Source: Coriobacteriia bacterium (GTDB lineage Bacteria; Actinomycetota; Coriobacteriia; WRKU01; WQUG01). Taken from it: a DNA stretch of 64,000 nucleotides. Both the position numbers and the translations under genes were made by a program. The stretch lies in NCBI GenBank assembly GCA_009779855.1, contig WRBC01000005.1, forward strand, positions 43,115 through 107,114, written 5' to 3'. Below the pieces are notes generated by a model that was not told where the DNA came from, ran no database searches, and saw only the letters and a list, made by a program, of their open reading frames with translations. Of this stretch, positions 28,009 to 55,863 are shown in pieces (within the stretch, counting starts at the first letter, position 1; each line of letters opens with the position of its first letter).

Positions 28009-28794
28009 GTGAACAAAAGGCCATCAACAACTAGGCGCTACCTTCGGGACGCTACTCTGGGACAGCGACGAGCTGCATTTGCTGCCGCTGTTCTAACTGT
28101 TGTTATGTTGATTGCCGCCATCGCATTGTTCTTCGCAACAGAGATGGAGATGCTGCGTCCAACCCCAACAACTGCAGCAGAGACTCAGTATTTGCGTGCG
28201 CGAAGCGCAGAGAGTGATGCGATTGATGCAGCGAGAGCTGCAAGGGTGGCCGTCGACACCGCCCCTGCCGTAGTGGCAGCGCGTATTGACACTGCTGATG
28301 CTCAGCTTTTGATGGGACAATTTAGCGCAGCAGCACGCACCCTTGACCTGGTGCTAAGGGACAACCCACACAATGTGAGAGCTCTCATCTTGCGCGGTAA
28401 CGTGTATGAGACCTCTGGTGATAAGCGCGATGCGGTAGATACCTACCATCTTGTACTAGATTACGTAGGTACGCATGAACCTGAAGTGCGCCGTGAGGCA
28501 CTGCGCGGGATTGGCTACAGTCTAGCATCGTTAGGCGAAGGTCCTCAGGCGTTGGACGCGCTCACCCAGGCTGCTCTGATCGTTCCAGAGTCAACTACCT
28601 TGCATCTTGCAGCGGGGGAGCTTGCCCTTGAACTAGAGCGCTGGGAACTTGCAGCAACACATTTTTACTCCGTTCTTCGCTTTGCTCCCAACGATGAGCT
28701 CGCACTTGATCGCTTAGCTGTGCTGGAGCGTGATCATAGCGAGGCTGCTTCGGCAGCGCTTATCGCGCTTACCGAAGGGACTGCGTATGAATGA
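28009..28794 (+). CDS. Membrane-anchored TPR-repeat protein
   Basis: N-terminal TM 'AAVLTVVMLIAAIALFF', then TPR-like helical repeats (ALILRGNVYETSGDKRDAVDTYHLVL...). Confidence 0.6.
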   Translation: MNKRPSTTRRYLRDATLGQRRAAFAAAVLTVVMLIAAIALFFATEMEMLRPTPTTAAETQYLRARSAESDAIDAARAARVAVDTAPAVVAARIDTADAQLLMGQFSAAARTLDLVLRDNPHNVRALILRGNVYETSGDKRDAVDTYHLVLDYVGTHEPEVRREALRGIGYSLASLGEGPQALDALTQAALIVPESTTLHLAAGELALELERWELAATHFYSVLRFAPNDELALDRLAVLERDHSEAASAALIALTEGTAYE

Positions 28795-30547
28795 GAAAAA
28801 GCCCTTCATATTACCCGCAGATATTCGTCGCAAGCGTATCTTTTGGTTGCTCAGCCTTTTCTTCGTGTTTCTACTTTGTCTAGGAATGCTGCTACTTGTG
28901 CTCTTGTTGAATATGGTGCAGCCTCCTGGTTTTGGTTCTGCTGCTCCTTCGCCTGTAGCGAATTTTCAGACATCGTTTTATGGTCCGGCGGAGGCGCTTC
29001 TTAATAGACCAACAGGTGTTGCCCTTTCTCCAAGCGGGGAGCTCTATGTATCTGATACGGGCAATGCGCGCGTGATTGTTCTTGACCGGAATGGTGTTAT
29101 GTTGCGCAGCATTACAGAGTTCACTTTAGCTCTAGATGACAGCCACGCAGATACTGATTCTGAAAATGGTGATGTGCGAAGGGGATGGCAATCTGCCTCT
29201 TACACTACGCCAATCGAGGACACACCAGGTGCCTTTGTTGCCCCAACAGCATTAGCTTTTGCTGATGACGGCAGATGGTTTGCTGTGGACCAAGCACAAA
29301 GGGTACTGCTTTTCTTTGACGCAGAGGATCGGTTGTTGCAGGGGGTTACTTTTGAAGAAGAGGAGCCCATTAGTGTTGATGTGAACCTAGTTGATGAAGA
29401 GGAGCAACTTTTTGTCACAACACGTTCAGGTATCCTGCAGGGAAGCCTTGAGGGAGAATTCTTTAGTACCTACATTAATTGGGGTCTACTTTCTGGGCAA
29501 CTAGATAATCCAGCTGCGGTTGTAGTTTTTGATCCAGCCCATATGAGTGAAGAGGCATCTATTTCTGCGACTGATACGGTTCAATTAACCATTGTTGCTG
29601 ATACGCTTAATAATCGTGTTCAGGCCTTTAAAAACTTCGACACAGAGCCTGAGGTAGCCTGGATGTTTGGAAGGCCAATCCTTTCTCCTGATGCCATGGA
29701 AGAATTGGATTATGAGTTTGAAAATATGATCCTAGGATACATGTCAGCCCCAGTGGATTTAGCACTTTCCCCTCTGGGAAGGCTTTTTGTTGTAGATGGA
29801 CTGACTTCAGAAATTGTTGTTCTGAATGCGCAAACAGGGGCTTACGAATACACGGTCTCTAGCGTGGGTTCGCGGGACGGGCTACTGTACTATCCTTCAG
29901 GTGTGGACTATGCCCAGGGCAACATCTATGTTGTGGACAGATTTAATGATAGGGTGTCAGTGTTTGAGGATGCCCCACCAAGTCCTGCAGACGAAGTAGA
30001 GGAACCAGTAGAAGCCTTCAATCGTTGGTTTTTATTAGCGTTGCCAGCTGTAGCATTCTTGTTAGCGCTTCTTAGGCTATTGACCTTGCGTATACCACGT
30101 TATGTGCTGGACTTGAGTTCTTTAGAGAGCTTGTCAGAGGACGATCAAATGCTCATGTTCATAATAGAGCACTTTGACAATTTAACCATTGTGTCTGGTA
30201 CAGAATCAGTTGCTGAAAAAGTATTGCCAGGTTATGACTGGAAAGTCGAGATAGCCAAAGAAGAAAAGCGTGACACTTTGATAGAGGAGTATTCGGGACT
30301 TAATGATTTGGAAGCAGAAGCATTAGCCTTGGCCTTAAAGAAAAAGAGCCGTAGTTATCTACTGACGGCTTCATCTGCTGTTGAGCACGCAGGTAAAGAA
30401 CAAGAAGCAAAGGTCGTAACCTTTGCAGAGTTCCGTGCCGTTGCACAGGGAATTATTGCTGAAGAAAGTCTTACAAAAGAAGAGGCGGCAGCTATTCTGA
30501 AGGATGACATTTCCCCGGGTGAAGAGGCAGAGAAAGAAGCCTCATAA
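28787..30547 (+). CDS. NHL-repeat beta-propeller membrane protein with a second TM and a C-terminal cytoplasmic domain
   Basis: Signal-anchor 'IFWLLSLFFVFLLCLGMLLLVLLL'. NHL repeats ('LYVSDTGNARVIVLDRNG', 'LFVVDGLTSEIVVLN', 'NIYVVDRFNDRVSVFE'). Second TM 'WFLLALPAVAFLLALL'. ATG at 28787 overlaps the TPR gene's stop by 8 nt. Confidence 0.7.
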   Translation: MNEKKPFILPADIRRKRIFWLLSLFFVFLLCLGMLLLVLLLNMVQPPGFGSAAPSPVANFQTSFYGPAEALLNRPTGVALSPSGELYVSDTGNARVIVLDRNGVMLRSITEFTLALDDSHADTDSENGDVRRGWQSASYTTPIEDTPGAFVAPTALAFADDGRWFAVDQAQRVLLFFDAEDRLLQGVTFEEEEPISVDVNLVDEEEQLFVTTRSGILQGSLEGEFFSTYINWGLLSGQLDNPAAVVVFDPAHMSEEASISATDTVQLTIVADTLNNRVQAFKNFDTEPEVAWMFGRPILSPDAMEELDYEFENMILGYMSAPVDLALSPLGRLFVVDGLTSEIVVLNAQTGAYEYTVSSVGSRDGLLYYPSGVDYAQGNIYVVDRFNDRVSVFEDAPPSPADEVEEPVEAFNRWFLLALPAVAFLLALLRLLTLRIPRYVLDLSSLESLSEDDQMLMFIIEHFDNLTIVSGTESVAEKVLPGYDWKVEIAKEEKRDTLIEEYSGLNDLEAEALALALKKKSRSYLLTASSAVEHAGKEQEAKVVTFAEFRAVAQGIIAEESLTKEEAAAILKDDISPGEEAEKEAS

Positions 30548-30673
30548 TTGCATTAATGGACAGTGCCAATTTACTTCCTGCACTATCAATATGAGTAAAA
30601 AGATTGTATTATGTACTAGTAGGATTTTCTGTTTTTTGACGACAGTCTATTGGTTGGCTGAAAGATTAGGCAC

Positions 30674-32602
30674 ATGATGAAGAGACGTACCATCGCAATA
30701 AAGACAATCAGTCTAGTACTGATGGTTGCCTGTGCGACTGTTTTTATAGCCGCACCTGCTTTTGCGGCAAACATTAATCAAATTTCAATAACTGAACTAA
30801 GCGCAGCACTAAGTGAAGGGGAACCTGTTCCTCCTGCGCGCATGTTTAGTGAGGGACTAGATTTCGAGGCAGCAGTAAGGCTTCCCGATGTAAACGGCAG
30901 GGAAGTATACCTAAATACGGCACGGCAACTTATATATAAGGCAAGTGACGGTACCTTTTTTGATGCCAGCGTTGGTGAAAACGTGGTTCCTGCAGACCTA
31001 GTCTTCGGGCCAGCCTACATGTTCCCCAGTGACGGAAATCAATACACCTTTACTGCGGGTGAAAATCCGCACCCAGGATTTGAGCTAAGGGGTCGAGGCC
31101 CACACGGTGGTTATACAACCACTTCGGCGAAATGTGCTACCTGTCACTCTGCACACTCTGCCGTAACTACTGAAGATCCCAATGATGTTCGTGCACCAGG
31201 CTCAAGCAGCGTAAATCTTGCTTCGCGTGCTAATGCCTCGCTTACTCGTGCTGGTTCGACTGGCTGTGAGTACTGCCATTTGACCGGTACTCCTATCGGT
31301 GCAGCAGGCATGAGTTCAAGGGTTGTATACACAGGTGGCATCGAGGGCGGCACAAGTAACATGGGCGAGGACATTTCAGGCCACTCGCTTTTCCAGCCCA
31401 ATATGGTGATTCCTAATTCGGCAATGGTAGATACTAGTGGAAATCCCATTATGGTTAGCGGGCAACCTCAGCCAGTAGTGCTAACAGATGGGTTGACCTG
31501 TGCTACCTGTCATGCTGTGCACGGAAACGTGGGAACCTGGCAGCCCGAAGAGTTCTTTAGAGGGGTTGGTACGGGGACTTTCGCACAGGGTGGTGCGTTT
31601 AGCAACGATGAAACCGTTGATGAACTTTCTTATCGAATGTTGCGTGTAAGCCCAGCAGGTGTGGCGAATCCTAACATTGCTCCTGCTCCGACAGAGCCAG
31701 CAGACCCTAGTAGCCCGCTTGTGTATGCCACAGACACAAACCAAATCAATCAGTTCACTATGGGCACGTGGTGCTCAAGCTGTCATAATGCTCCTGGCAT
31801 GAATAAGGTTATGGAAAGTACCACTGCAAGTGGGGCCACCTTTGAAGAAATGATGGACTCACTACCCAGTACCTTCACGGTAAATAATGCTGACGTTCAC
31901 AGTGTAGATGGTGGTTTTGCAGCCAGCTATCCAGCGGATGCTCCAGATCTGCCAGAGGAAGCTCATCCGTCAACTTTTGTGGGTGTTTACTCGGGGCCAG
32001 GACAGTGCTATACCTGCCACCGTGGGGATTTGGGCGGACCGCTCAATGCGCAGTGGACACTTAACGGGTCACCTGTTGCAGAGTGGGAACTTGGTGCAGA
32101 GTTAGCCCCTGACCCTGATGCGCCTACGGACTTGGACACACTTGCCCGCTTCCGCGCCCTGGGTTACTTTGCTCTTGATTCAGGCACAGCGCAGCAACAG
32201 CTTGATCAGCAGGCTCGTAATCTTGCCTGTTCTAGCTGCCACTTTGGCACTGCAGATTATGCGCGCTGGTCACTTATGAGTGACTGGCCACACAGATCAG
32301 CAGACAGTGATGTCATGTTGCTAGGACTTGATTTAAACAGTACTGAACTTAGTCAAGTGGGTGACTCAGGAAATGCCACAAGACTTCCTGCAAGCCTTGC
32401 ATCAGAGCGCTTCTGTTCTCGTTGCCACATCAGCATCAACGATGCAAGTGCTGCTAATATGTTTGCTATTTCACATCACTATCTAGAGCATAACAATATT
32501 AATAATGAAGAGACTACGGTCACACTGTTTTCTCCGCTAAGTCCTGGAAATGAACCTACAGGCGCAGCAGGGTCTGGAAGTAGCATAGAGACGACTCCAT
32601 AA
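30674..32602 (+). CDS. Secreted multiheme c-type cytochrome (seven CxxCH motifs)
   Basis: Signal peptide 'ISLVLMVACATVFIAAPAFA'. CxxCH x7: CATCH, CEYCH, CATCH, CSSCH, CYTCH, CSSCH, CSRCH. Confidence 0.8.
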   Translation: MMKRRTIAIKTISLVLMVACATVFIAAPAFAANINQISITELSAALSEGEPVPPARMFSEGLDFEAAVRLPDVNGREVYLNTARQLIYKASDGTFFDASVGENVVPADLVFGPAYMFPSDGNQYTFTAGENPHPGFELRGRGPHGGYTTTSAKCATCHSAHSAVTTEDPNDVRAPGSSSVNLASRANASLTRAGSTGCEYCHLTGTPIGAAGMSSRVVYTGGIEGGTSNMGEDISGHSLFQPNMVIPNSAMVDTSGNPIMVSGQPQPVVLTDGLTCATCHAVHGNVGTWQPEEFFRGVGTGTFAQGGAFSNDETVDELSYRMLRVSPAGVANPNIAPAPTEPADPSSPLVYATDTNQINQFTMGTWCSSCHNAPGMNKVMESTTASGATFEEMMDSLPSTFTVNNADVHSVDGGFAASYPADAPDLPEEAHPSTFVGVYSGPGQCYTCHRGDLGGPLNAQWTLNGSPVAEWELGAELAPDPDAPTDLDTLARFRALGYFALDSGTAQQQLDQQARNLACSSCHFGTADYARWSLMSDWPHRSADSDVMLLGLDLNSTELSQVGDSGNATRLPASLASERFCSRCHISINDASAANMFAISHHYLEHNNINNEETTVTLFSPLSPGNEPTGAAGSGSSIETTP

Positions 32603-44253: not shown

Positions 44254-45453
44254 ATGAGTAGTAGAACTAAACAAAGAAGAAACGCGAGGAAGAAGATGAT
44301 TAAGGCTATGAAAGGTGCCCGCGCTAAACTTTCTTTTGCGCTCGCACTTGCACTGGTCATGGGTCTTACAGCCGCTGGTACGGCTTTTGCAGATCCAGCC
44401 CCAATCTACGTTAATCCAAACAGTTATGCAGAGATCACAAAGGTTCTCGAGAGACCCATGGGGGTACACCTGCCAGAGCCAGCAGATGCAGGATTCAATT
44501 TCTCTGCAACACCGCAGGCTTTTGATGGGGGCACGATTCCCTCAGGATTAAGCTTTCCAGACATTGCATCAATCTCTCTAAATACCAATGATGGGGTTCT
44601 TCCTGATGTTTGGGAACGCACTTATCCTGAGAATTGGGGAGTCGACTCCATCGAAAGATCTGTTAGATTTGACCTCGCTGACTTGACCTTCAGTCGTGCG
44701 GGACAGTATGACTATTTGGTAGAACAGCAGCCCAATAGTCACGAGGACATCACTGACTCGAGCGAGAGGTATATATTGCGCCTAACCGTTGGGCAAAACA
44801 ACGCCATCAGCAATGTGCAATTCTTTGACTTCCGTGCGGGTAGCATGGGCGCTGCAATTGATTCTCCTCGCTTTATAAGCACCTATACGCCTGTGGGATC
44901 GCTTAGCATTACGAGTGAAGTAGCGGGCGCTGATGCTGATGAACATAAGGACTTCGATTTTAGAATCAGGCTAACCAGCACATCTTTTGCAGATTTTGAT
45001 GGCACAGTGGACGCGACGATTACTAATGCCGCAGGTTCGGGAGCATCAAGCCACACTATCACCTACAATCAGTGGTATAGCTTTACCTTGCAGCATGGCT
45101 GGAAAATGGAAATCAGCAATCTGCCTTTGGGTACTGCCTTCATGGTAAATGAGCCAGCTCCAACAGATTACATTCCTTCAGTTGATGTTACCGTAGATGG
45201 GAATATCTCCTTTGTCTATTCTGTAGGTGACCTAGATAGAGCAATCACCTCAGAATCAGCTTTGGCACAGGCTTTCTTGGTAGAAGAGCGTGTAGTGGGT
45301 GCGGGAGAAAACCTCGTAGCCTTTAGTCACTACATGCCTGATACTCCAGAACCGCACATCGTGCAGGACAATCTGGTCTGGTTTGCTGTTGCAGGTATAG
45401 GGGCAGTATTCTTCATAGCCCTTGTAGTGTTTATGCGTAAGCGTCTTAATTAA
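44254..45453 (+). CDS. Secreted cell-surface protein with a C-terminal TM anchor (no LPXTG)
   Basis: Signal peptide 'LSFALALALVMGLTAAGTAFA'. C-terminal 'VWFAVAGIGAVFFIALVVFMRKRLN'. Preceded by a 170-nt AT-rich leader. Confidence 0.6.
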   Translation: MSSRTKQRRNARKKMIKAMKGARAKLSFALALALVMGLTAAGTAFADPAPIYVNPNSYAEITKVLERPMGVHLPEPADAGFNFSATPQAFDGGTIPSGLSFPDIASISLNTNDGVLPDVWERTYPENWGVDSIERSVRFDLADLTFSRAGQYDYLVEQQPNSHEDITDSSERYILRLTVGQNNAISNVQFFDFRAGSMGAAIDSPRFISTYTPVGSLSITSEVAGADADEHKDFDFRIRLTSTSFADFDGTVDATITNAAGSGASSHTITYNQWYSFTLQHGWKMEISNLPLGTAFMVNEPAPTDYIPSVDVTVDGNISFVYSVGDLDRAITSESALAQAFLVEERVVGAGENLVAFSHYMPDTPEPHIVQDNLVWFAVAGIGAVFFIALVVFMRKRLN

Positions 45454-47732: not shown

Positions 47733-47789
47733 TAGACTTCCACAGCGCCTTTTTTGTTCATGCTTCTGCTACACTGTTTTAATACTCTA

Positions 47790-48015
47790 TTGGTTCTATG
47801 TGCTGCGGACCGGCACAAAGACGAAGAGGGAAGCTGGTGAAAATCCAGCGCAACCCCCGTTGCCGTAATAGGGAACGAGGATTAAGCACAGGCCACTGGC
47901 GCGGATTGCGCTGGGAAGGCGCTTGTCCTCATTTGACCCTTAAGCCGGAAGACCTGTCAAAGAGCCCTAAAAAGTATCTGTCTTTCGGCGGGAAAGACCG
48001 GATCTATCTTTTTAA
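47790..48015 (+). promoter_or_regulatory. Cobalamin (B12) riboswitch with a putative attenuator hairpin
   Basis: Core elements readable directly: 'AGAGGGAAG', 'GGTGAAAATCC', 'GCCACTG', 'GGGAAGGC', and B12-box 'AAGCCGGAAGACCTG'. Then a 7-bp hairpin GTCTTTC-GGCGG-GAAAGAC (47980-47998) and a T-run (48008-48012). Ends about 50 nt before the ATG at 48066. Confidence 0.85.
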
Positions 48016-48065
48016 GTAGATAATCCGGACATAAGACTCCGTCGCAAAGAGCGAGGAGGAAACAG

Positions 48066-51000
48066 ATGCACGTCAGATCAAACATAAGCCTTAGGCTTGC
48101 ACTAGTCTTAGCGATATTTGCATTTTCGTTATTAGTGATGGTTCCCGTAGCGTGGGCGCAAGAGGTTACTGCTACTTTGCGCGTAGAATTTATTGAAGAT
48201 ACGAGGCTTGCTCCTATGGAAGTTACGATGGAGCACAGACCTCTCAGTGACTTTGGTATAAACATGAGCGATCCGGGCTTTGTTACTCCTATCCACCTTC
48301 TTGCAGAAGGACTTGAGCAGCGTTACGGTGCAGGATCTGCGGCAAGCATGATTAATGCTCCTGGAATGCTCATGACTATCGATGATTCTTTCGGCTCGAT
48401 TGCAGGTGAGCCCAATGTATGGTGGATGTTTGCCATCAACCAATCGATGCCTGTGTCTACAGATACTGGATGGGGATATGCCTCAAATCAGTACCGTGTT
48501 CAAAACGGCGATGATATTGACTTCCTGGGCATGTGGGGAGGTCAGTGGGGTGTAGCGTCACCCTTTATAGGCTTCTTTGGTAGCCAGACTTACCATACTA
48601 CTGTTGGGCAGCCCTTAGAGGTTGAATTGCTTGGGCTTGATGGCTTTGATGACTTTGCTGTGAGACCTTCGCGCATACTTGAGGGCGCAGAAATCCTTGT
48701 AGACCCTGCAGGCAGTACACGTGCTGGCGCGACAACAGCTAGCGGCACTTTTATTGATGAAGAGGGTCTGGCAGAACTCACTTTCGACGAAGCAGGTACA
48801 TTTCTGCTTAGTGCAAGGCGACCTATCGCAAGCCCCAGCAGCCCTAGTGGTACGGTCAGTGACATTACTCGTCCCTTTGCGGTAGTAACAGTAAGCGAGT
48901 CATCTGGTCAGCCTAACTGGACTCAAGAGGGTGCCCCAGCAGCAAGTATAGATTTCAGCATTGAAGAGCTCACCAATCTAGTTCCAGGTGTTGAGTACAG
49001 CATTGACAGCACAGGCAGCACTGACAGTGCGCGTATCGTGGCTAATGCGGACGGAACAATTCCTCTAAGTGAAGCCTGGTTTGGACAAGGCATAGATATT
49101 GTACGGCTGGGTATTGCAGCAAATCATACTCTTGATAGTGACCCTCAGAACTTAGCAGTTCCTTCTCGTTCGTCTGCCCCCACGGGTCTAGGCTCAATTG
49201 ACGCGACGGGTACTGTTGAAAGTGCTACGGGCGTGATTACAGGGGTAGGTTCTGCTATGGAGTGGCGTCTACGTACGGGAACTACATGGACGGCTGTCTC
49301 AGGTGCAACGGTAGAGAATCTTATTCCAGGCACTTATTATGTTCGCTTCCAGTCAGAACCAGGCTCTTTCGCTAGTGCATCCGCAGCAGTAATCGTGTCC
49401 CTAGATCAGCAGTACTGGTCTCAAGCAAGCACGCCAACAGCAGCAGTAGATTTTGAACTTGAGGTACTTACGGGACTCACCCCAGAAGCTGCCTACCTTA
49501 TTGCTGGACAACATAACATGAGTGATTCAAGTGGCGCGATTCTTTTGGACGCTGCGTGGCTTGGTCAGAATATTAGTATCGTAAAGTTAGGCAATCCTGC
49601 CAACTTTACCCTTGATAGCGATGTCCAGTCTCTTGCGGTCCCGCTACGTCCGCATGCTCCTACAGGGCTAAGCCCAGCTAATGCAACAGGCACAAATAGT
49701 GACGGCTCTATTGCTGGTGTGGCCTTCACTATGGAGTGGCGCTTAAGCACTTCACATGCCTGGACAGCTGTTACAGGCGCGACCATAGAAAATCTTGTAG
49801 CAGGCACCTACCATGTTCGCTTCCGGGCTACATCAGGGTCCTTTGCAAGTGCCTATGCCACAGTAACGGTATCTGTGACAGGAGAGCTGCCCAGTGTCAG
49901 GTGGAGTTCTTTTCGTGGCAATGCCTTTAATTTGGCAAGAGTCGATTCAGGTACTCCAGCTACAAACCAACTAGGTAGAACACTTTGGAGCCAGCCAGTT
50001 AGTGATGGGTCATCAGCCCTGTCCCCAGTAAAGGTGGGTGACGCCGTTTACATTGCAGGTGGGTCGACTTTGTGGAAACTTGATTCTGCGGGAAGCATAG
50101 TTGACACAGTGCCTCTTGAAGCTCCCATAGGGCAGGCGGCCTTCCTTGCGGCAGGCAGTGGTAAAATTTTCGTACCCATTGGTGCTGGACAAGTGCAGGC
50201 TTTTGATGCACACACTCTGCAGCCACTTTGGACATCTGAGCCTTTTGCAAGCAATTGGCAGGCTTTAGGTGCACTGACGTATAAAGATGGTTACCTCTAT
50301 GGTTCTGCAAGTTTTGACCTCTTTATGCGCCATAGCGAAGGGGCCTTCTTCTGTCTTGATGCAAGCACCGGTGAAGAAGTATGGACCCACTCTTCCTCTT
50401 CTGGTGCAGCCCAGACAGGATTCTATTGGGCGGGCGCAGCAGTGACAGATCATGTAGTACTTTTTGCAGGTGATGAGGGCATATTGGTTTCACACACTGC
50501 GGGAACACAGACGGCACGAGCAACGGGAATCGTTGACACGGCCGTGCTTGCTGGTGGCGTGCGTAGCCCCGTACTGTTTGTTGAAAATGAGGTGTCTGCT
50601 GATGGCAGCGGTGTTGCTTTTGCTTCAACACGAGACGGTTTTGTGTCACGTGTCGTGGTTGCTGCTGACGGCAGCCTAGGTCCAGTCCTGTCGGCCCCCT
50701 TAAGCGGAGAGATATCCACGGCGACACCGGTAATATACCGAAATCGTCTTTATGTTGTATCAGGGGAACTGCTTGATGGTGGCTACGTAGATGTCTTTAG
50801 CGCAACAACGCTAGAGCGCTTGCGTAGTATTGAGCTGCCCGGATTTAGCCAGTCTTCTCCACTTCTTGCTACTGCTGGCTCAAATAGTGCTAATGGCTAT
50901 GAAGTGTCATTGTTTGTGGCGCTTAATGATATGCAAGACGATGTTGTCCGTATTATTGATTCAGAGCGTGTTGGTGCTGAAATGCGCGCAGAAACCTTTC

Positions 51001-51596
51001 TAAGTCCAGGGGGATCGTTTGCACTGAATTCTGTAAGCGCCTGTGATCAGGGTAGACTCTATTATGTTGATGGACGTGGCAATTTCACTGCAATTACCGC
51101 TGCGAACCAGCAGTTGTCACCAGGCAATGGCGGTAACGGCAATAACGGTAACGACAATAACAACAATGGTGACGCTGGTGGAGGCACGGATGGCAGCGGT
51201 AATAATGGTGGTGCTAACGATGACATCTACTCACCTCAAGAGGAGGACGAGACTACCTCTGAAGAATCTGGTTCTGAAGATGCCACAGGGATTCCAGGCG
51301 ATGGATCAAGGGCAGCAGGCGAAGGTCCAAAAACTGCTGATGTAAGTGATGCTATGCGTTGGCTTTTCTTTGCGGCATTAGCGCTGACAGCAGGGTTTGC
51401 AGTGATTGCAGCTAAAATAGCTGACCGAAAAAAAGAGAAGCTGAAAAAGCTAGAAAAATTCAAAGAAGACGCTAGCCAGCACGAAGACAGCAAGGCCACT
51501 GTAGCGACGACACCGGTGGCAGCAGGTCAAGCAGAACATAGCGAGGGTGCTGACTTGCAGAGTCCGTACCAAAATAAACAGGAGCAGCGCGTATGA
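48066..51596 (+). CDS. Large cell-surface protein: signal peptide, DUF4430-like (transcobalamin-like) domain, two tandem ~160-aa repeats, PQQ/BamB-like beta-propeller, N/G-rich linker and C-terminal TM anchor. Putative cobalamin-capture protein.
   Basis: Signal peptide 'LALVLAIFAFSLLVMVPVAWA'. N-terminal 'ATLRVEFIED...NVWWMFAINQ...YRVQNGDDIDF' resembles the DUF4430 domain of the downstream lipoprotein. Propeller blades such as 'VYIAGGSTLWKLD' and 'GQVQAFDAHTLQPLW'. C-terminal 'WLFFAALALTAGFAVIAAKIADRKK'. First gene after the B12 riboswitch. Confidence 0.8.
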   Translation: MHVRSNISLRLALVLAIFAFSLLVMVPVAWAQEVTATLRVEFIEDTRLAPMEVTMEHRPLSDFGINMSDPGFVTPIHLLAEGLEQRYGAGSAASMINAPGMLMTIDDSFGSIAGEPNVWWMFAINQSMPVSTDTGWGYASNQYRVQNGDDIDFLGMWGGQWGVASPFIGFFGSQTYHTTVGQPLEVELLGLDGFDDFAVRPSRILEGAEILVDPAGSTRAGATTASGTFIDEEGLAELTFDEAGTFLLSARRPIASPSSPSGTVSDITRPFAVVTVSESSGQPNWTQEGAPAASIDFSIEELTNLVPGVEYSIDSTGSTDSARIVANADGTIPLSEAWFGQGIDIVRLGIAANHTLDSDPQNLAVPSRSSAPTGLGSIDATGTVESATGVITGVGSAMEWRLRTGTTWTAVSGATVENLIPGTYYVRFQSEPGSFASASAAVIVSLDQQYWSQASTPTAAVDFELEVLTGLTPEAAYLIAGQHNMSDSSGAILLDAAWLGQNISIVKLGNPANFTLDSDVQSLAVPLRPHAPTGLSPANATGTNSDGSIAGVAFTMEWRLSTSHAWTAVTGATIENLVAGTYHVRFRATSGSFASAYATVTVSVTGELPSVRWSSFRGNAFNLARVDSGTPATNQLGRTLWSQPVSDGSSALSPVKVGDAVYIAGGSTLWKLDSAGSIVDTVPLEAPIGQAAFLAAGSGKIFVPIGAGQVQAFDAHTLQPLWTSEPFASNWQALGALTYKDGYLYGSASFDLFMRHSEGAFFCLDASTGEEVWTHSSSSGAAQTGFYWAGAAVTDHVVLFAGDEGILVSHTAGTQTARATGIVDTAVLAGGVRSPVLFVENEVSADGSGVAFASTRDGFVSRVVVAADGSLGPVLSAPLSGEISTATPVIYRNRLYVVSGELLDGGYVDVFSATTLERLRSIELPGFSQSSPLLATAGSNSANGYEVSLFVALNDMQDDVVRIIDSERVGAEMRAETFLSPGGSFALNSVSACDQGRLYYVDGRGNFTAITAANQQLSPGNGGNGNNGNDNNNNGDAGGGTDGSGNNGGANDDIYSPQEEDETTSEESGSEDATGIPGDGSRAAGEGPKTADVSDAMRWLFFAALALTAGFAVIAAKIADRKKEKLKKLEKFKEDASQHEDSKATVATTPVAAGQAEHSEGADLQSPYQNKQEQRV
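48914..49885 (+). repeat. Intragenic tandem duplication (two ~480-nt / ~160-aa repeat units) inside the large surface-protein gene
   Basis: Units NWTQEGAPAASIDFSIEELTNL...AAVIVS and YWSQASTPTAAVDFELEVLTGL...ATVTVS align at roughly 50% identity. The antisense artefact ORFs 49145-49333 and 49565-49807 are near-copies of each other for the same reason. Confidence 0.85.
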
Positions 51597-52540
51597 AAAG
51601 GTGCGCATTGAGAGTTGCCATCTGTCTACTTGCAGCGCTATTTATTCTAGTGCTTGCTGGCTGCAGCCGACCTGAGCACACAGGACCAAAAGCAAGTAAT
51701 ACTTCTGCCAGCACAAACATTGTCACGAGTGGTCCAAGCAAGTCATCGGCTGAAGGAACATCCACTGCCACAGATACCTCATTGGATGATGAGCAAGATC
51801 AGAACGAAGATGCTGATGCAGAAGCAATAGGCCAAACAGGTGACGATTCTGAAGGTTCTGCTGAGGATACTGAAGCACAGGGACAAAATGCAGGAAGCAG
51901 TTCTGGTGGCAGTTCCCGCAATTCTAATTCTGGCAGTAATGGGTCAGGTTCCTCCACAGCAAGTTCTGGGGGCCAGGGTACAGGTGCAGGCACAAATTCT
52001 AGCGGCGGTAATGTCTCTACACAAAATAGTAACCGAAATACAGGACAAAGCTCTGGGGGAAGTTCAAACCAAAACGCGAACCGAAATTCCGGACAGGGTT
52101 CAGCAGGAAATTCTAGTCAAGGCAACACGGGTACCGGGCAGTCACAATCTGGCGGATCTAACCAGAGTAATACCCCTAGGACTATTACCGTGTCGATTGA
52201 AATCGAGGCACGTCTGGCTCACGCGCAAAATCCAGCAGCGCTATCAGGCATCGCTAATAATGGGATAATTCTTGCACGTAGGAATGTGACCTTACAGGAA
52301 GGTGCAACAGTACGCCAAGCCTTAGATGCAACAGGAATACGTGTTAATGCGCGCGGAGCATATATTGCAGGGATTGGTGGTCTATCTGAAGGGGACATAG
52401 GTCCCCGCAGTGGCTGGATGTTTAGCGTAAACGGGCAATTTCCCGGAAGTTCTGCATCTGCTCAAAGACTTAACGCAGGGGATGTAATCGCGTGGCGCTA
52501 TACCCTGAATGGGGGAGCAGACCTCGGTGCCAGCTGGTAG
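51593..52540 (+). CDS. Lipoprotein with a long S/G/N/Q-rich disordered linker and a C-terminal DUF4430-like (transcobalamin-like) domain
   Basis: Lipobox 'LVLAGC'. About 150 aa of low complexity. C-terminal 'ITVSIEIEARL...RRNVTLQEGATVRQALDATGI...RSGWMFSVNGQFPGSSASAQRLNAGDVIAWRY'. ATGA overlap with the upstream gene. Confidence 0.8.
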   Translation: MKRCALRVAICLLAALFILVLAGCSRPEHTGPKASNTSASTNIVTSGPSKSSAEGTSTATDTSLDDEQDQNEDADAEAIGQTGDDSEGSAEDTEAQGQNAGSSSGGSSRNSNSGSNGSGSSTASSGGQGTGAGTNSSGGNVSTQNSNRNTGQSSGGSSNQNANRNSGQGSAGNSSQGNTGTGQSQSGGSNQSNTPRTITVSIEIEARLAHAQNPAALSGIANNGIILARRNVTLQEGATVRQALDATGIRVNARGAYIAGIGGLSEGDIGPRSGWMFSVNGQFPGSSASAQRLNAGDVIAWRYTLNGGADLGASW

Positions 52541-52595
52541 AACGTACAGAAGGCATAGGCTAAAACGGCGCTTCTTGTTGTTGCATCCAGGTGTT

Positions 52596-53483
52596 ATGAT
52601 GGCCTTTTTTGTTGGTGTCATTGTGGTGACCTTGCTTAGCTATCACCCATTAATCCTGGGACTTTCTTTTGTGTTTGCGGCAGCAAGTGTAATCTACTAT
52701 CTAGGAGTAAAGGTACTGGGACGGTCATTAATGTGGTTAGGACCGATGACTGCTATTGTTGTAGTTTTTAATACGGTATTTAATCGTCGCGGTGCGACAG
52801 AACTTTTCACTACCGAACACCTTCAGATGACTTTTACCTTAGAGAGTCTACTTTTTGGCCTAAGTATTGCACTTATGCTGACTGCAGTTATTCTCTGGTT
52901 TCGCCTTTATCAAGAACTTATGACAAGTGATCGCTTTCTTTATCTTTTCGCACCTATTGCCCCAACTTTCGCCCTAAGTGTCACCATGGTGCAGCGCTGG
53001 ATTCCTCTAACGAAGTATCGTTGGCAGCAGATTAGAGATGCTCATAAACCCTCAAGATTTGCGGCTATTCGATCTTTGACACACTCATTGTCAGCACTCA
53101 TGTCATGGTCTATGGAGGATGCTATACAGGCAGCAGACTCGATGCAGGCTCGTGGATACAGTAAAAGTAGTTCTAGCAATTACGGCAAGAATAATCAAGG
53201 CAAAGGCGCTCATGATACAAGGAAACGACGCAGAAGTAGCTTTCGATACTTTCCTTTCACCACTTATGATGCCATCGCACTTACTGTAGTCATCTTACTT
53301 GCTGTCACAGCGGGACTAGCCGTCTTTTTCTCAGCTAGAGAGCTCGCCTTTTTCCCCGTTTATAGGGGCGTTGAATATCTTTCTGCCACTGCCCTAATAG
53401 CTGTAACCCTGCTTATGTTTTTTCCACTGCTGCTTGAAGGTGGTGAGCAGCTAAGATGGCGATTATCCGCGCAGAAAACCTAG
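52596..53483 (+). CDS. ecfT: ECF transporter transmembrane (T) component, EcfT/CbiQ family
   Basis: About 5 TM. Coupling-helix-like 'DSMQARGYS' (the A-R-G motif typical of EcfT). An in-frame upstream extension to 52509 has no TM and is probably not translated. Overlaps ecfA by 28 nt. Confidence 0.7.
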   Translation: MMAFFVGVIVVTLLSYHPLILGLSFVFAAASVIYYLGVKVLGRSLMWLGPMTAIVVVFNTVFNRRGATELFTTEHLQMTFTLESLLFGLSIALMLTAVILWFRLYQELMTSDRFLYLFAPIAPTFALSVTMVQRWIPLTKYRWQQIRDAHKPSRFAAIRSLTHSLSALMSWSMEDAIQAADSMQARGYSKSSSSNYGKNNQGKGAHDTRKRRRSSFRYFPFTTYDAIALTVVILLAVTAGLAVFFSARELAFFPVYRGVEYLSATALIAVTLLMFFPLLLEGGEQLRWRLSAQKT

Positions 53484-55198
53484 GTTTTACCTATCCAGAA
53501 GCTCAAAATTCAACCTTTGATGAGGTTAATTTTCAAATCAGTGCAGGGGAGTTTGTCCTATTATGTGGACGCACAGGTAGCGGCAAGACGACCTTGTTGC
53601 GACAGCTTGTCCCGGCTCTTGCCCCTCATGGTCAGTCTACAGGTGAACTTGAAGTAAAGGGAAGTGTAGGCTTTGTTCAACAGACCCCCGATAATCAAAT
53701 TGTTACAGACATTGTTTTTCATGAACTTGCTTTTGCTTTAGAAAATCAAGGTCTGCCAACCCAGACCATCAGGCGGAAAGTGGCGGAGATCGCCAGCTAC
53801 TTCGGCCTGGAGTATTTACTAGAAGCAAAGACACATTCTTTGTCAGGCGGACAGAAGCAAATCCTTAACCTAGCAGCAACCCTTGTAGCCGAGCCAGACA
53901 TCCTTGTCCTTGATGAGCCAACCAGTGAACTTGACCCTATAGCTGCACAGAACTTTTTGCGTCACCTGGCACGTATTAATCGTGAGCTGGGAACTACGGT
54001 AGTATGCTGTGAGCATCGCCTAGATGAAGTTCTTGACCTTTGTGACAGGGTCTTGTTGATGAGCAAGGCAAAGGGACAGGATTTAGGAAAGCAGGACATA
54101 GAGGGACGAAACATCGAGGAACAAAACTCCAAAGAACAGGACGTTCAGTCGCATACAGCGCAGCAATTCGTCCAGAGTTGTCTGGGAGTCAATAGGAACT
54201 TTGCTCTTTACTTGCCAGAACCCACCCGTATTGCTCTTGCTGCTGCCAGTGCAAAGAGGACTCCTGCAGAGCCTGTAGGATCCGCCGTAAAGTCCATAAA
54301 GCTCACAGAATGGCCTCTTGATGTAAAAAGTGGGCGCACTTGGTTGATAGAAAACCTTGCTGTGTTTCCTCATGCGCAGACGAAGCCTTCTGTGCAATCA
54401 TCATCTTTCTCTTCGTCATCCCTGTCAGGGCCCCCTGCAATCACTATCCGGGATCTTTGTTTTCGCTATGAAAGGGAGGAGCCTTTCATAATAAGATATC
54501 TGAACGCTACGTTTAGTCGGGGAAATGTGCATGGCATAGTAGGCGGAAACGCTTCAGGAAAGTCTACTTTGCTTGGGCTTATCTCAGGTATACACCGATC
54601 CCAGCTAGGCAAGGTCCGCATAGACAGAAACTTAAGATTGGCAGCACTGCCTCAAAATCCTAAGGCGAATTTTGTTTGTGATACCGTGCGCGAAGATCTT
54701 CATGACTCAAATACAGAAATAGATGCAGAGGCAGTGCTACAGGTGGCACGTGACATGGATATTACTCATCTATTAAACAGTCATCCCTATGACCTTTCTG
54801 GGGGAGAAACCCAAAAGGCGGTTCTTGCAAAGTTGCTACTAAAAGATCCCGATATCCTCTTACTGGATGAACCAACTAAGGGTCTGGACGCACAGGCAAA
54901 ACAGGAAATTGGACGTATCTTTGACCAATTGGCTCAGCAGGGGAAAACGCTCATTATCGTTACTCACGATCTTTCTTTTGCAGCAGAGCATACGCAGACA
55001 TGCTCTCTTTTAGCAAATGGTGAGCTTATAGCCCAGGACCAAACTCACAATTTCTTTCTTGGGAATAGCTTCTACACTACGCCGACAAATCGTATGTCCC
55101 GAGGCATTGTTGATGACTGTGTAATCGCTGATGATATTCTTAGGGCCCTGAAGCTTGAAGAGTCTCAGCAAAAGGCTCAAGAAGCTCCCCTGTTATGA
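53456..55198 (+). CDS. ecfA: Fused ECF transporter ATPase (EcfA-EcfA', two NBDs; CbiO family)
   Basis: NBD1: 'GRTGSGKTT', 'LSGGQKQIL', 'LVLDEPTSELD'. NBD2: 'GGNASGKST', 'LSGGETQKA', 'LLLDEPTKGLD'. Confidence 0.9.
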   Translation: MAIIRAENLGFTYPEAQNSTFDEVNFQISAGEFVLLCGRTGSGKTTLLRQLVPALAPHGQSTGELEVKGSVGFVQQTPDNQIVTDIVFHELAFALENQGLPTQTIRRKVAEIASYFGLEYLLEAKTHSLSGGQKQILNLAATLVAEPDILVLDEPTSELDPIAAQNFLRHLARINRELGTTVVCCEHRLDEVLDLCDRVLLMSKAKGQDLGKQDIEGRNIEEQNSKEQDVQSHTAQQFVQSCLGVNRNFALYLPEPTRIALAAASAKRTPAEPVGSAVKSIKLTEWPLDVKSGRTWLIENLAVFPHAQTKPSVQSSSFSSSSLSGPPAITIRDLCFRYEREEPFIIRYLNATFSRGNVHGIVGGNASGKSTLLGLISGIHRSQLGKVRIDRNLRLAALPQNPKANFVCDTVREDLHDSNTEIDAEAVLQVARDMDITHLLNSHPYDLSGGETQKAVLAKLLLKDPDILLLDEPTKGLDAQAKQEIGRIFDQLAQQGKTLIIVTHDLSFAAEHTQTCSLLANGELIAQDQTHNFFLGNSFYTTPTNRMSRGIVDDCVIADDILRALKLEESQQKAQEAPLL

Positions 55199-55863
55199 AC
55201 CTTCTTATCTCGTCAGTCGTAGTAGGTATACCTCTTATTGTGCTGGTTTTTGGGATTGAGCGCGTGAAGCCTCGCCCCCGCGACCTTATGCCTGTGATAG
55301 TTTTAACGGCCCTTGCTATATTGGGGCGTGTGGCTGCCATGCCTATTCCTAATTTTCAGCCAGCAACAGCACTCATTATTCTAGCGGGTTTCTTTTTTGG
55401 TAGACACGCAGGGTTACTTTCGGGCATGTTGGTCGCGCTAGTTTCGAATATATTTATGGGACAGGGCCCCTGGACTCCTTGGCAGATGCTTACCTGGGGG
55501 CTTGTGGGTTACGGAGCAGGACTTTTAGGGGACAGAGTAAGCTGGGCCCAGCCTCACGAAGTTGAGCCCAGAGAACCTGAGAAGAACAGATACACAAAAC
55601 GCAGGAGGATCATTTTGCTTGCGGTTGTAATCATCTACGGTGTGGTGGCATCACTACTCTTTGGGATGATTATGGACGTACAGTTCTTTGTTGCTTATAT
55701 CTGGGAATCAGGATGGCCAGGTCTTGTGGCTACATGGATGATGGGTCTGCCCATGAATGTTGCTCACGCGGCTTCAACATGCATCTTCTTGGTGCTTACC
55801 CTTATTCCCTGGGGAAAGAAGTTTCATCGTCTAAAGACGAAGTACGGAATCCGAAGCATTTAG
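55195..55863 (+). CDS. Putative ECF substrate-specific (S) component; by operon context, a cobalamin-specific S unit
   Basis: 222 aa and about 6 TM. 'LVSNIFMGQGPWTPWQMLTWGLVGYGAGLL' looks like an S component. ATGA overlap with ecfA. Last gene of the riboswitch-led operon. Confidence 0.6.
   Translation: MNLLISSVVVGIPLIVLVFGIERVKPRPRDLMPVIVLTALAILGRVAAMPIPNFQPATALIILAGFFFGRHAGLLSGMLVALVSNIFMGQGPWTPWQMLTWGLVGYGAGLLGDRVSWAQPHEVEPREPEKNRYTKRRRIILLAVVIIYGVVASLLFGMIMDVQFFVAYIWESGWPGLVATWMMGLPMNVAHAASTCIFLVLTLIPWGKKFHRLKTKYGIRSI

Follow-up and report, generated by a model that had tools for sequence, protein, structure and literature searches.

A beta-propeller surface protein of a Coriobacteriia gut bacterium is a predicted vitamin B12 scavenger

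We describe a 1176-aa protein of a Coriobacteriia gut bacterium as a predicted vitamin B12 scavenger. This assignment is very probably correct because the protein joins a transcobalamin-like domain to a propeller and belongs to a family found beside B12 riboswitches and importers in dozens of gut species. That it acts as an accessory of corrinoid acquisition is almost certain. We also consider it probable that the gene encodes a cell-surface corrinoid capture protein serving the ECF-CbrT-type importer encoded downstream, through the mechanism proposed below. Corrinoid competition shapes gut communities; extracellular capture is detailed for Bacteroides alone (BtuG, H, J, K), and a 2026 review calls corrinoid capture in Gram-positive bacteria “entirely uncharacterized” (PMC13616437). 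The propeller family offers concrete, widespread candidates for this missing Gram-positive step.

A riboswitch-led operon encoding an ECF importer

The gene and its neighbors lie as follows in the window, the whole 64,000-nucleotide stretch that was analyzed.

47774..47975, + strand: cobalamin (B12) riboswitch aptamer, RF00174 (cmscan, 108.5 bits, E 3e-26)
47980..48065, + strand: expression platform and leader (read from the sequence)
47980-47998, + strand: hairpin GTCTTTC-GGCGG-GAAAGAC (terminator scan), with a T run some distance 3'
48053-48059, + strand: Shine-Dalgarno GAGGAGG (read from the sequence)
48066..51596, + strand: the 1176-aa gene, with signal peptide, SLBB domain, Ig domain, two spacer modules, propeller, linker, and anchor
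51593..52540, + strand: lipoprotein with lipobox LAGC, long S/G/N-rich linker, and C-terminal canonical DUF4430 (Pfam)
52509..53483, + strand: ECF transmembrane (T) component, CbiQ-like (via the L001 ortholog)
53456..55198, + strand: fused EcfA-EcfA' ATPase with two ABC domains (two Pfam ABC_tran matches; NCBIfam)
55195..55863, + strand: ECF S component, CbrT-like (phmmer E 4.2e-11 to 6FNP chain A)

The surface-protein open reading frame proposed in an earlier, sequence-only reading of this DNA is real: its product is identical to MCL2745527.1, which NCBI names [quoted passage not shown]. As that reading also held, it is the first gene 3' of a B12 riboswitch. The RF00174 match spans the full model (1-189), far exceeds the gathering score of 31.5, and ends 90 nt upstream of the start codon. 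RF00174 is likewise present 5' of the orthologous genes in loci L001, L003, and L004. The leader may act through termination or RBS occlusion.

The gene heads a five-gene operon in which each downstream start overlaps the preceding stop. The lipoprotein gene, whose start overlaps the stop codon of the 1176-aa gene, is syntenic in loci L001-L005, and its product carries DUF4430 at aa 237-304 (Pfam E 2.6e-14). The importer predicted downstream is indeed there, with its T, A-A', and S genes at 52509-55863. Pfam and PDB searches with the T component's own sequence gave no match; it is called CbiQ-like because its L001 ortholog (56% identity) matches Pfam CbiQ (E 1.2e-8). The fused ATPase matches NCBIfam ECF_ATPase_1 and _2 (E 1e-84 and 3e-77), and the S component has Pfam matches to ECF-ribofla_trS and DUF6580. 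With a CbrT-homologous S component, EcfT, and two EcfA domains, the operon has the composition of an ECF-CbrT-type importer, predicted to transport B12. The riboswitch and gene order recur in orthologous loci. Among the ten larger window ORFs scanned, none was a B12 biosynthesis or B12-dependent gene.

ECF-CbrT of Lactobacillus delbrueckii (PDB 6FNP) has been shown to carry cobalamin and cobinamide (PMC5997447). The S component encoded downstream is similar to that of 6FNP (E 4e-11), and T and A-A' components are common to both systems. However, L. delbrueckii CbrT uses a shared (group II) EcfAA'T module with no extracellular accessory proteins described (PMC5997447), whereas the present operon has a dedicated module under riboswitch control, together with two extracellular SLBB proteins.

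The system might instead import another tetrapyrrole or a corrinoid precursor (heme, cobinamide) rather than complete cobamides. The L. sakei ECF operon lsa1836-1840 (S, A-A', T, TC-beta-like, TC-alpha-like) has been linked to heme uptake (10.1101/864751), and it resembles the present operon in having ECF S, A-A', and T genes with exported transcobalamin-beta-like protein(s) as proposed tetrapyrrole scavengers. Burroughs et al. allowed “B12 or its precursors” as ligand (PMC1796856), and multiheme cytochrome genes lie near the operon, both in the window and in orthologous loci. Nevertheless, this alternative is improbable: the present operon and at least 47 related loci are under the control of a cobalamin riboswitch, and the S component matches a carrier of cobalamin and cobinamide (PMC5997447). 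Cobinamide uptake would still be corrinoid salvage, compatible with corrinoid capture. The L. sakei operon also differs in that an alpha/alpha toroid, rather than a propeller, partners its beta-like protein, its reported substrate is heme, and no riboswitch has been reported.

Domain architecture, export, and anchoring

The protein itself is divided as follows.

48066..48158, + strand: signal peptide, aa 1-31, ending ...VPVAWA / QE (hydrophobic aa 5-32; putative cleavage site)
48162..48545, + strand: D1, transcobalamin-beta / DUF4430 (SLBB) domain, aa 33-160
48561..48905, + strand: D2, Ig-like beta-sandwich, aa 166-280, invariably after D1 in the family
48918..49406, + strand: spacer module 1, aa 285-447 (51% identical to module 2)
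49407..49883, + strand: spacer module 2, aa 448-606 (its last ~57 aa align with the end of NCBIfam NF045980, far under cutoff)
49899..51101, + strand: eight-bladed BamB/YxaL/PQQ-like beta-propeller, aa 612-1012
51111..51320, + strand: low-complexity G/N/S/D/E-rich linker, aa 1016-1085 (read from the sequence)
51324..51422, + strand: GPKTAD motif, aa 1087-1092, and hydrophobic anchor, aa 1096-1119, then a Lys/Arg cluster (conservation, hydropathy)

D1 has a transcobalamin-beta fold, in keeping with the transcobalamin-like or DUF4430-like N-terminal module that had been proposed. Transcobalamin was recovered by fold search alone; PDB sequence searches with the whole protein, an N-terminal profile, and a D1 profile returned nothing meaningful. 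Sequence identity to mammalian transcobalamin, intrinsic factor, and haptocorrin is 10-13%, and the 1176-aa protein lacks the alpha6/alpha6 toroid domain of all three. D1 scores 16.4-16.7 bits against PF14478 (E 0.01, profile positions 28-68 of 72), below the gathering score of 23.8. Half of the homologous D1 segments (18 of 36) do match PF14478 (best E 9e-12), as does the D1-D2 protein of L008 at 29.9 bits. We therefore class D1, by transitivity, as a divergent DUF4430 member. An hhalign comparison of the N-terminal profile with the DUF4430 of the neighboring lipoprotein gave just a 32-column match (21% probability). The D2 domain that follows was absent from the earlier description.

The sequence-only reading also noted duplicated Ig-like modules. 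The duplication stands; “Ig-like” is a tentative label for these modules, based on weak beta-sandwich matches, the only ones found for them in Pfam. The insert (aa 285-606) is missing from the six closest orthologs (P0002-P0007, 779-899 aa long), and related repeats occur in Firmicutes S-layer-type proteins (P0008-P0012). The duplicated modules are a lineage-specific spacer.

The protein is predicted to be exported and surface-exposed. The AWA-Q junction of the signal peptide is conserved across orthologs, and no lipobox is present because the signal peptide ends AWA / Q. The proposed C-terminal TM anchor corresponds to the hydrophobic segment at aa 1096-1119, and G1087, P1088, T1090, and D1092 just before it are invariant across 7 orthologs. 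The conserved GPKT[GA]D motif, hydrophobic segment, and KKEK cluster could form a sortase signal of LPXTG type; however, G occupies the first place in the motif, A stands where G would be expected in the query, and a tail of 57 aa follows. The C-terminus probably holds the protein in the membrane, with sortase wall attachment the less likely alternative. A pilin-like neighbor (44254-45453), checked to calibrate the sorting signal, carries no LPXTG motif.

The propeller matches PF13360 (PQQ_2) above the gathering score, and its fold is eight-bladed. It has neither the PQQ and metal-binding active site nor the full-length PF01011 match of PQQ-dependent dehydrogenases, which are weaker structural matches than BamB and YxaL. 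It differs in repeat type from the BtuG propeller, as had been noted: hhalign finds no profile similarity between the two (probability 0.3%).

The sequence-only reading did not recognize this architecture as a described family, but Burroughs et al. catalogued it in 2007, listing Gram-positive surface proteins that combine transcobalamin-like SLBB and Ig domains with “a beta-propeller domain”, whose operons also encode another SLBB paralog and CbiO/CbiQ, and predicting B12 scavenging (PMC1796856). Like the 1176-aa protein, these have a signal peptide, a C-terminal anchor, and SLBB fused to Ig folds and a beta-propeller, and the present operon likewise encodes two SLBB paralogs, the first of them anchored, and contains CbiO-like and CbiQ-like genes. 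That catalog held one Clostridium propeller fusion, which may not belong to this family, and took the extra domains as wall tethers. Riboswitch linkage, split-gene forms, stand-alone propeller genes, and Bacteroidales members, all described below, were not part of it.

Linkage of the family to B12 loci

An exhaustive HMMER search recovered 521 representatives at E<=1e-30, and the arrangement D1-D2-(variable spacer)-propeller is found in ~45 of the top 150. This search ruled out a tiny family (~20 relatives by word-index searches) as a sensitivity artifact. Members occur in Eubacterium, Roseburia, Lachnospiraceae, Oscillospiraceae, Coriobacteriia, and some Bacteroidales.

Genomic context was surveyed in 80 species-level GTDB loci carrying the propeller family, the best 80 of 280 matches to one query type. 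These loci were found with a four-sequence propeller alignment sharing the GTLYYxNDSG motif and are therefore biased toward that subtype. A same-strand upstream RF00174 riboswitch is confident in 47 of the 80 and probable in 7 more. All 63 nhmmer riboswitch matches lie on the gene's strand, almost all of them upstream, and Rfam confirmed every strong match tested (9 independent loci) together with 3 weak ones. No riboswitch was detectable in 26 loci, 10 of which were checked with Rfam. ECF T/S genes are present in 46 loci and DUF4430/SLBB genes in 66; at least one of riboswitch, ECF genes, and DUF4430 is present in 73. Across phyla, the association with B12 riboswitches and with ECF and SLBB genes is far beyond chance. 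Widespread occurrence of homologs outside B12 contexts had been named as a check on the scavenging idea, and the survey found the opposite. SLBB domain and propeller are fused in 13 of the loci, and in ~30 genomes of Eubacterium, Lachnospiraceae, and Roseburia, D1-D2 and the propeller have separate genes that lie side by side directly 3' of the riboswitch.

These contexts bear on whether the protein could be an adhesin or wall protein of generic function, or a PQQ-type enzyme, with the transporter as a mere neighbor. Its NCBI name would fit such a role, as would the resemblance of the spacer modules to Firmicutes S-layer-type repeats and a Blautia subgroup outside B12 contexts. However, the survey largely refutes this reading, which we regard as very improbable: 73 of 80 loci carry B12 markers, with every riboswitch match on the gene's strand; the gene is translationally coupled to transporter genes; and BamB and YxaL are better structural matches than PQQ dehydrogenases. 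The Blautia/Ruminococcus subgroup adjoins DUF58 and TgpA transglutaminase genes, without riboswitch or ECF genes. This subgroup counts as evidence against the B12-scavenger reading, as do the sub-threshold D1 score (16.4 vs 23.8 bits), the scaffold-type propeller with its lack of profile similarity to BtuG, the 26 of 80 loci without a riboswitch, and the 9 of 80 that also encode an alpha/alpha-toroid protein.

Candidate roles of the propeller

Bacteroidales members of the propeller family lie in operons with a riboswitch, a TonB-dependent receptor (BtuB), and BtuK-like and BtuG-like proteins. These B12 operons contain no ECF and no DUF4430/SLBB genes, and a search of the N-terminal 240 aa of their propeller proteins for SLBB or a known B12-binding domain gave no Pfam or PDB match. 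The corrinoid is the sole element common to all contexts, which makes the ligand a likelier interaction partner of the propeller than any particular transporter.

The 1176-aa protein had been suggested as a possible monoderm analog of BtuG. The riboswitch, the CbrT-type ECF operon, and the D1 fold of transcobalamin-beta type give strong support to a cell-surface role in corrinoid acquisition. The idea of a BtuG substitute does not hold, as the same propeller family occurs beside BtuB, a BtuG homolog, and a BtuK-like protein in Bacteroidales, with BtuG and BtuK and not instead of them. The propeller family is an additional accessory family in both envelope types. BtuG (BT1954, PDB 3DSM) and BtuK1 (PDB 9S6C) of Bacteroides are likewise surface beta-propellers from B12-riboswitch-controlled transport loci, and BtuGH is likewise a fusion, of a propeller with a second B12-binding domain. 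However, BtuG and BtuK are seven-bladed and lipid-anchored, and cap or accompany TonB-dependent BtuB, while the present propeller is eight-bladed, BamB-like, and ECF-linked in monoderms. The 1176-aa protein has no seven-bladed propeller homologous to BT1954 and is not a lipoprotein adjoining and capping BtuB, which is absent from the window.

We propose the following mechanism. Low intracellular B12 would lead the riboswitch to permit expression of the five-gene operon. The protein would be exported and kept in the membrane by its C-terminal hydrophobic segment (or, less likely, attached to the wall by sortase), and the acidic G/N/S linker and, in this lineage, the two ~160-aa beta-rich spacer modules would extend the working domains into or beyond the wall. 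There, the corrinoid would be bound by the SLBB domain D1 together with D2, its obligate Ig-like partner, and D1 and the propeller would act as one unit. The propeller may form the second face of a binding sandwich, like the transcobalamin alpha domain or the BtuG propeller face, or it may dock partner proteins. The DUF4430 lipoprotein, tethered to the membrane, would next receive the ligand and hand it to the CbrT-like S component for import driven by ATP.

Within a B12 uptake system, the propeller might be a BamB/Rv3035-style protein-protein scaffold without corrinoid binding, organizing SLBB proteins and perhaps the S component, or tethering to wall polymers, with the ligand bound by the SLBB domains alone. 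Characterized BamB/YxaL/Rv3035-type propellers are protein-protein scaffolds (PMC13041763), and wall tethering was suggested for the extra domains by Burroughs et al. (PMC1796856). On the other hand, Bacteroidales keep the propeller in B12 operons without SLBB and ECF genes, so no conserved protein partner is evident, and two other propeller families of B12 loci, BtuG and BtuK1, bind B12 directly (PMC13616437). We regard the scaffold role as possible but do not favor it. The known roles of BamB, YxaL, and Rv3035 are in outer-membrane protein assembly, helicase or plant interactions, and mycobacterial envelope biogenesis, respectively; unlike the family described here, none is linked to B12.

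More tentatively than for capture as such, we suggest that corrinoid binding may be a property of the eight-bladed BamB-like propeller itself, which would then be a new binding module, evolved in convergence with the seven-bladed BtuG and BtuK, whose propellers bind B12 on one face (PMC13616437). Together with SLBB, it could constitute a “propeller-type transcobalamin” whose propeller face replaces the alpha/alpha toroid and clamps the corrinoid: a mobile, envelope-independent capture device common to Clostridia, Coriobacteriia, and Bacteroidales. A search for a ligand site among conserved propeller residues returned generic blade motifs. The idea that the propeller replaces the transcobalamin alpha domain was rejected as a general rule: in 9 of the 80 loci an alpha/alpha-toroid protein is encoded as well, and the substitution is thus not universal. 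If true, a propeller-type transcobalamin would be a high-affinity extracellular B12 receptor for Gram-positive gut bacteria, of a kind not yet demonstrated. B12 binding by the propeller would also make it the third independent propeller solution to B12 capture, and a metagenomic marker gene of corrinoid scavenging, in place of today's bare “PQQ-binding-like” or “hypothetical” annotation. Cultured strains with family members are Hominisplanchenecus faecis, Blautia spp., Anaerovorax sp., Dysgonomonas sp., and Ruminococcus sp.

The operon and the architecture of its first product

The 1176-aa surface protein is encoded by an uninterrupted open reading frame and is followed by four genes, the start of each overlapping the preceding stop codon. 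The same sequence is deposited at NCBI as MCL2745527.1, [quoted passage not shown]; five further assemblies contain near-identical copies.

Features of the riboswitch and operon
47774-47975, forward strand: full-length Cobalamin riboswitch aptamer (Rfam RF00174), 108.5 bits (gathering score 31.5)
48066-51596, forward strand: first gene, the 1176-aa protein
51593-52540: second gene, lipoprotein (lipobox LAGC) with a C-terminal canonical DUF4430 domain (E 2.6e-14)
Third gene: membrane protein; an ortholog sharing 56% identity has a Pfam CbiQ match
Fourth gene: fused double ABC ATPase, matching ECF ATPase models
Fifth gene: ECF S component, matching 6FNP chain A (E 4.2e-11)

Within the 90 nt separating the aptamer from the start codon are a hairpin and, 6 nt upstream of the ATG, a GAGGAGG Shine-Dalgarno sequence. 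The structure matched by the S component is that of the ECF-CbrT vitamin B12 transporter (PMC5997447). These results bear out the factual claims of the sequence-only reading, namely the open reading frame, a B12 riboswitch upstream, and an ECF importer downstream. Between its lipobox and its domain, the DUF4430 lipoprotein carries approximately 200 low-complexity residues rich in S, G, N, and Q, presumably a flexible tether across the wall.

Hydropathy analysis places hydrophobic segments at aa 5-32, a signal peptide that ends at AWA, before QE, and at aa 1096-1119, which are followed by a Lys/Arg cluster. The six closest orthologs, which come from Coriobacteriia metagenome bins and are 779-899 aa long, cover aa 1-284 and 597-1150 in the alignment, and aa 285-606 are absent from all six. 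Thus, the family core consists of the N-terminal region, the propeller, and the anchor. The insert comprises two modules of ~160 aa with 51% mutual identity, in agreement with the duplicated modules noticed earlier. These modules resemble repeats of Firmicutes S-layer-type proteins, and their Pfam matches are weak, every one being to a beta-sandwich family.

The N-terminal region (aa 30-285) is modeled as two domains (8-sequence alignment; pLDDT 80.7). Although the first of these, D1 (aa 33-160), scores only 16.4 bits on Pfam DUF4430, below the cutoff of 23.8, 18 out of 36 homologous D1 segments taken from the family at large do match this model (best E 9e-12). D1 is therefore a divergent transcobalamin-beta/SLBB domain. 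The second, D2 (aa 166-280), has an Ig-like fold and invariably comes after D1. The D1 helix begins with a TPxH motif (TPIH, aa 74-77, window 48285-48296). Its nearly invariant histidine, His77, is shared by 90% or more of a set of 36 diverse D1 domains and has no counterpart in the canonical DUF4430 domain of the neighboring lipoprotein; this residue may contact the ligand or coordinate cobalt.

Conserved motifs of the form GPKT[GA]D, VKTGD, or VATGD precede a hydrophobic segment and basic cluster, both in this protein (window 51324-51422, aa 1087-1119) and at the propeller C-termini of three surveyed loci (L006, L064, and L077). We take these motifs to resemble the clostridial (S/P)PXTG and NVQTG sortase signals. 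The motif of the 1176-aa protein has Ala at the Gly position, and the tail is unusually long (57 aa).

Breadth of the family and its linkage to cobalamin riboswitches

Word-index searches returned only a handful of relatives; an exhaustive HMMER search with a 7-sequence family profile returned 1817 cluster representatives at E<=1e-3, of which 521 reached E<=1e-30. Among the best 150, local domain HMMs detected the order D1-D2-spacer-propeller in about 45; the others have the propeller alone or with other surface modules. Spacers range from 0 to ~1900 aa, which makes the insert one among many variable spacers. A genome survey, using one genome per GTDB species, yielded 280 relatives, of which we studied the best 80, these being the best matches to one propeller-family sub-type. 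Those 80 derive from gut Clostridia (Eubacterium, Lachnospiraceae, Roseburia, Blautia, Ruminococcus, Oscillospiraceae, Anaerovorax, and Coprobacillaceae), Coriobacteriia (Ellagibacter), and, unexpectedly, Bacteroidales (Dysgonomonas, Lentimicrobiaceae, and others).

Using an nhmmer profile made from ten Rfam-verified riboswitches, we found 63 riboswitch matches in 85 loci (the 80 surveyed loci and five orthologous loci, L001-L005), 58 of them in 54 of the 80 surveyed loci. All are on the strand of the propeller gene, almost all upstream of it, and the matches are confident in 47 of the 80 loci. Rfam confirmed each strong match tested, at nine independent loci, plus three weak matches, and was also negative for ten loci that had no nhmmer match. 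ECF T or S genes (transmembrane and substrate-binding components) occur in 46 of the 80 loci and DUF4430/SLBB domains in 66, annotations that Pfam spot checks upheld. At least one of the three signals is present in 73 loci, and most of the other seven are short contigs. Homologs occurring widely outside B12 riboswitch contexts, which the sequence-only reading had considered as a sign of a generic adhesin, are thus not what the survey found. These riboswitch statistics also make it unlikely that the protein is a generic adhesin or enzyme, or that its substrate is haem, for which there is a precedent in L. sakei.

A compact cobalamin-riboswitch-like element of ~114 nt, without the peripheral extension, is located upstream of the propeller gene at L044 (9688-9801), L059, L063, L069, L070, and L081. 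It scores 28.1 bits on RF00174, against the gathering score of 31.5, and precedes a gene for a 440-aa propeller-only protein, followed by T-A-S-DUF4430-DUF4430 (A, ATPase). This element may be an under-detected riboswitch variant.

There are counter-examples. Six Blautia/Ruminococcus loci (L032, L035, L038, L040, L042, and L047) have neither a cobalamin riboswitch nor ECF genes. Their conserved order (e.g., L038 2178-12556) is DUF58, a TgpA-like transglutaminase membrane protein, a 458-aa DUF4430 protein, a 558-aa protein, and a propeller protein of 1293 aa that also has Cadherin-like and Big_2 domains. The SLBB-propeller pair seems to be put to another use here. In Ellagibacter, the ECF operon is present and a riboswitch was not detectable. 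Nine of the 80 loci additionally encode an alpha/alpha-toroid protein.

Fused, split, and stand-alone propellers

The SLBB domain and propeller share one open reading frame in 13 of the 80 loci. About 30 Eubacterium, Lachnospiraceae, and Roseburia genomes instead carry the same fusion as two genes: a riboswitch, a D1-D2 protein of ~400-450 aa, then a propeller protein of ~520-600 aa, adjoined by divergently transcribed DUF4430-T-A-S genes. Both products have a signal peptide and share a Lys-rich C-terminal domain of ~70 aa (L008 8496-9686 and 9705-11261; L014, L025, and L041) with the pattern W.K...GYQ.Y.S.KKK..YKK...KKGTY.VK.RAY...YS...VK.K, which may be a wall-binding or pairing module. Such fusion and fission argue that the SLBB part and the propeller act together.

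Other Clostridia have a stand-alone form, in the order riboswitch, propeller (440 aa), T, A, S, DUF4430, DUF4430, or alternatively riboswitch, DUF4430, T, A, S, propeller. One locus, L018 (1-21188; Firmicutes bacterium UBA2058), has four full cobalamin riboswitches in 21 kb, controlling giant surface proteins: 1455 aa (DUF4430, aBig_2, and Cadherin-like), 1416 aa (propeller, DUF4430, and three SLH domains), and 2086 aa (SLBB).

Bacteroidales propeller genes are the last in operons that comprise a riboswitch, a TonB-dependent receptor, a DUF5074 protein, a BtuG homolog (matching 8BLW chain B, E 7e-78), and a second DUF5074 protein (matching BtuK1 9S6C, E 1e-11). ECF genes are absent from these loci, and searching them with a sensitive D1 profile revealed no SLBB domain. 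The propeller protein has Big_2 domains and a T9SS sorting domain. It also has a conserved N-terminal domain of ~240 aa, rich in Trp, Tyr, and Asp (FxVQGHERPDL...LVWGYRWDG...NYDDWT...SGWYNGYWSYQVKD), at L007 9200-9950 (aa 1-250 of a 983-aa protein), L034, L049, L057, and L072. This domain has no Pfam or PDB sequence match and, being found in riboswitch-BtuB-BtuK-BtuG operons, is a candidate new B12-locus domain.

The sole feature common to the split, stand-alone, and Bacteroidales contexts is the corrinoid and its riboswitch. Chiefly for this reason, we infer that what the propeller handles is the ligand, not any one transporter.

Relation to BtuG and proposed role

The propeller (aa 600-1020) is modeled (22-sequence alignment; pLDDT 87.6, pTM 0.88) with eight blades and PQQ_2 repeats, and so differs in type from that of BtuG, as had been suspected. 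Neither BtuG nor BtuK is among its 60 best structural matches. When 155 propellers of the family were combined into a profile, hhalign found no resemblance to BtuG-like proteins (probability 0.3%) and, for BtuK-like DUF5074 proteins, only a local match over one blade. The protein was proposed as a monoderm analogue of BtuG; lacking BtuG's defining features, it is not a member of that family, and it may nevertheless work like BtuG.

We read the protein as a surface corrinoid-capture accessory of a B12 importer, and a role in surface corrinoid acquisition is probable. The operon would be a B12-repressed corrinoid salvage system. The exported protein would be held by its C-terminal segment, with linker and spacer modules carrying D1-D2 and the propeller across the wall or past it. 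D1 would bind the corrinoid, as does the homologous beta domain of transcobalamin, and we lean towards this binding being direct. The propeller could be a second binding face or a dock for partners; that it contacts corrinoid itself is a tentative suggestion. The ligand would then pass to the membrane-tethered DUF4430 lipoprotein and on to the CbrT-like S component. The main competing reading retains the B12 system but casts the propeller as a scaffold of the BamB/Rv3035 type or as a wall tether, the latter following PMC1796856.

The architecture had been thought undescribed, incorrectly, as both it and the general B12 prediction are already in the literature. Burroughs et al. 2007 (PMC1796856) defined the SLBB superfamily, whose members have signal peptides and Gram-positive anchors, are encoded in one operon together with CbiO/CbiQ genes and a second SLBB paralog, and probably scavenge B12. 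Their SLBB-propeller example may belong to the present family. In the literature searched, we found no experimental work on SLBB-propeller proteins, no recognition of the eight-bladed family as a hallmark of B12 loci, and no account of its split, fused, and stand-alone forms or of its presence beside BtuG and BtuK in Bacteroidales; papers naming DUF4430 with cobalamin were all unrelated. A 2026 review describes Gram-positive extracellular capture as uncharacterised (PMC13616437). The interest of the system is solid rather than exceptional, and would be higher if the propeller were a new B12-binding module.

Elsewhere in the window, positions 5290-9099 encode a 1269-aa fusion of RecJ (DHH, DHHA1, and RecJ_OB), a HIRAN domain, and a DEAD/Helicase_C helicase. 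At 28730-32602, an NHL-repeat protein adjoins an MtrC/MtrF-like multihaem cytochrome, and similar cytochrome genes flank the B12 loci of two close orthologs (L001 5290-9472 and L004 20642-22388).
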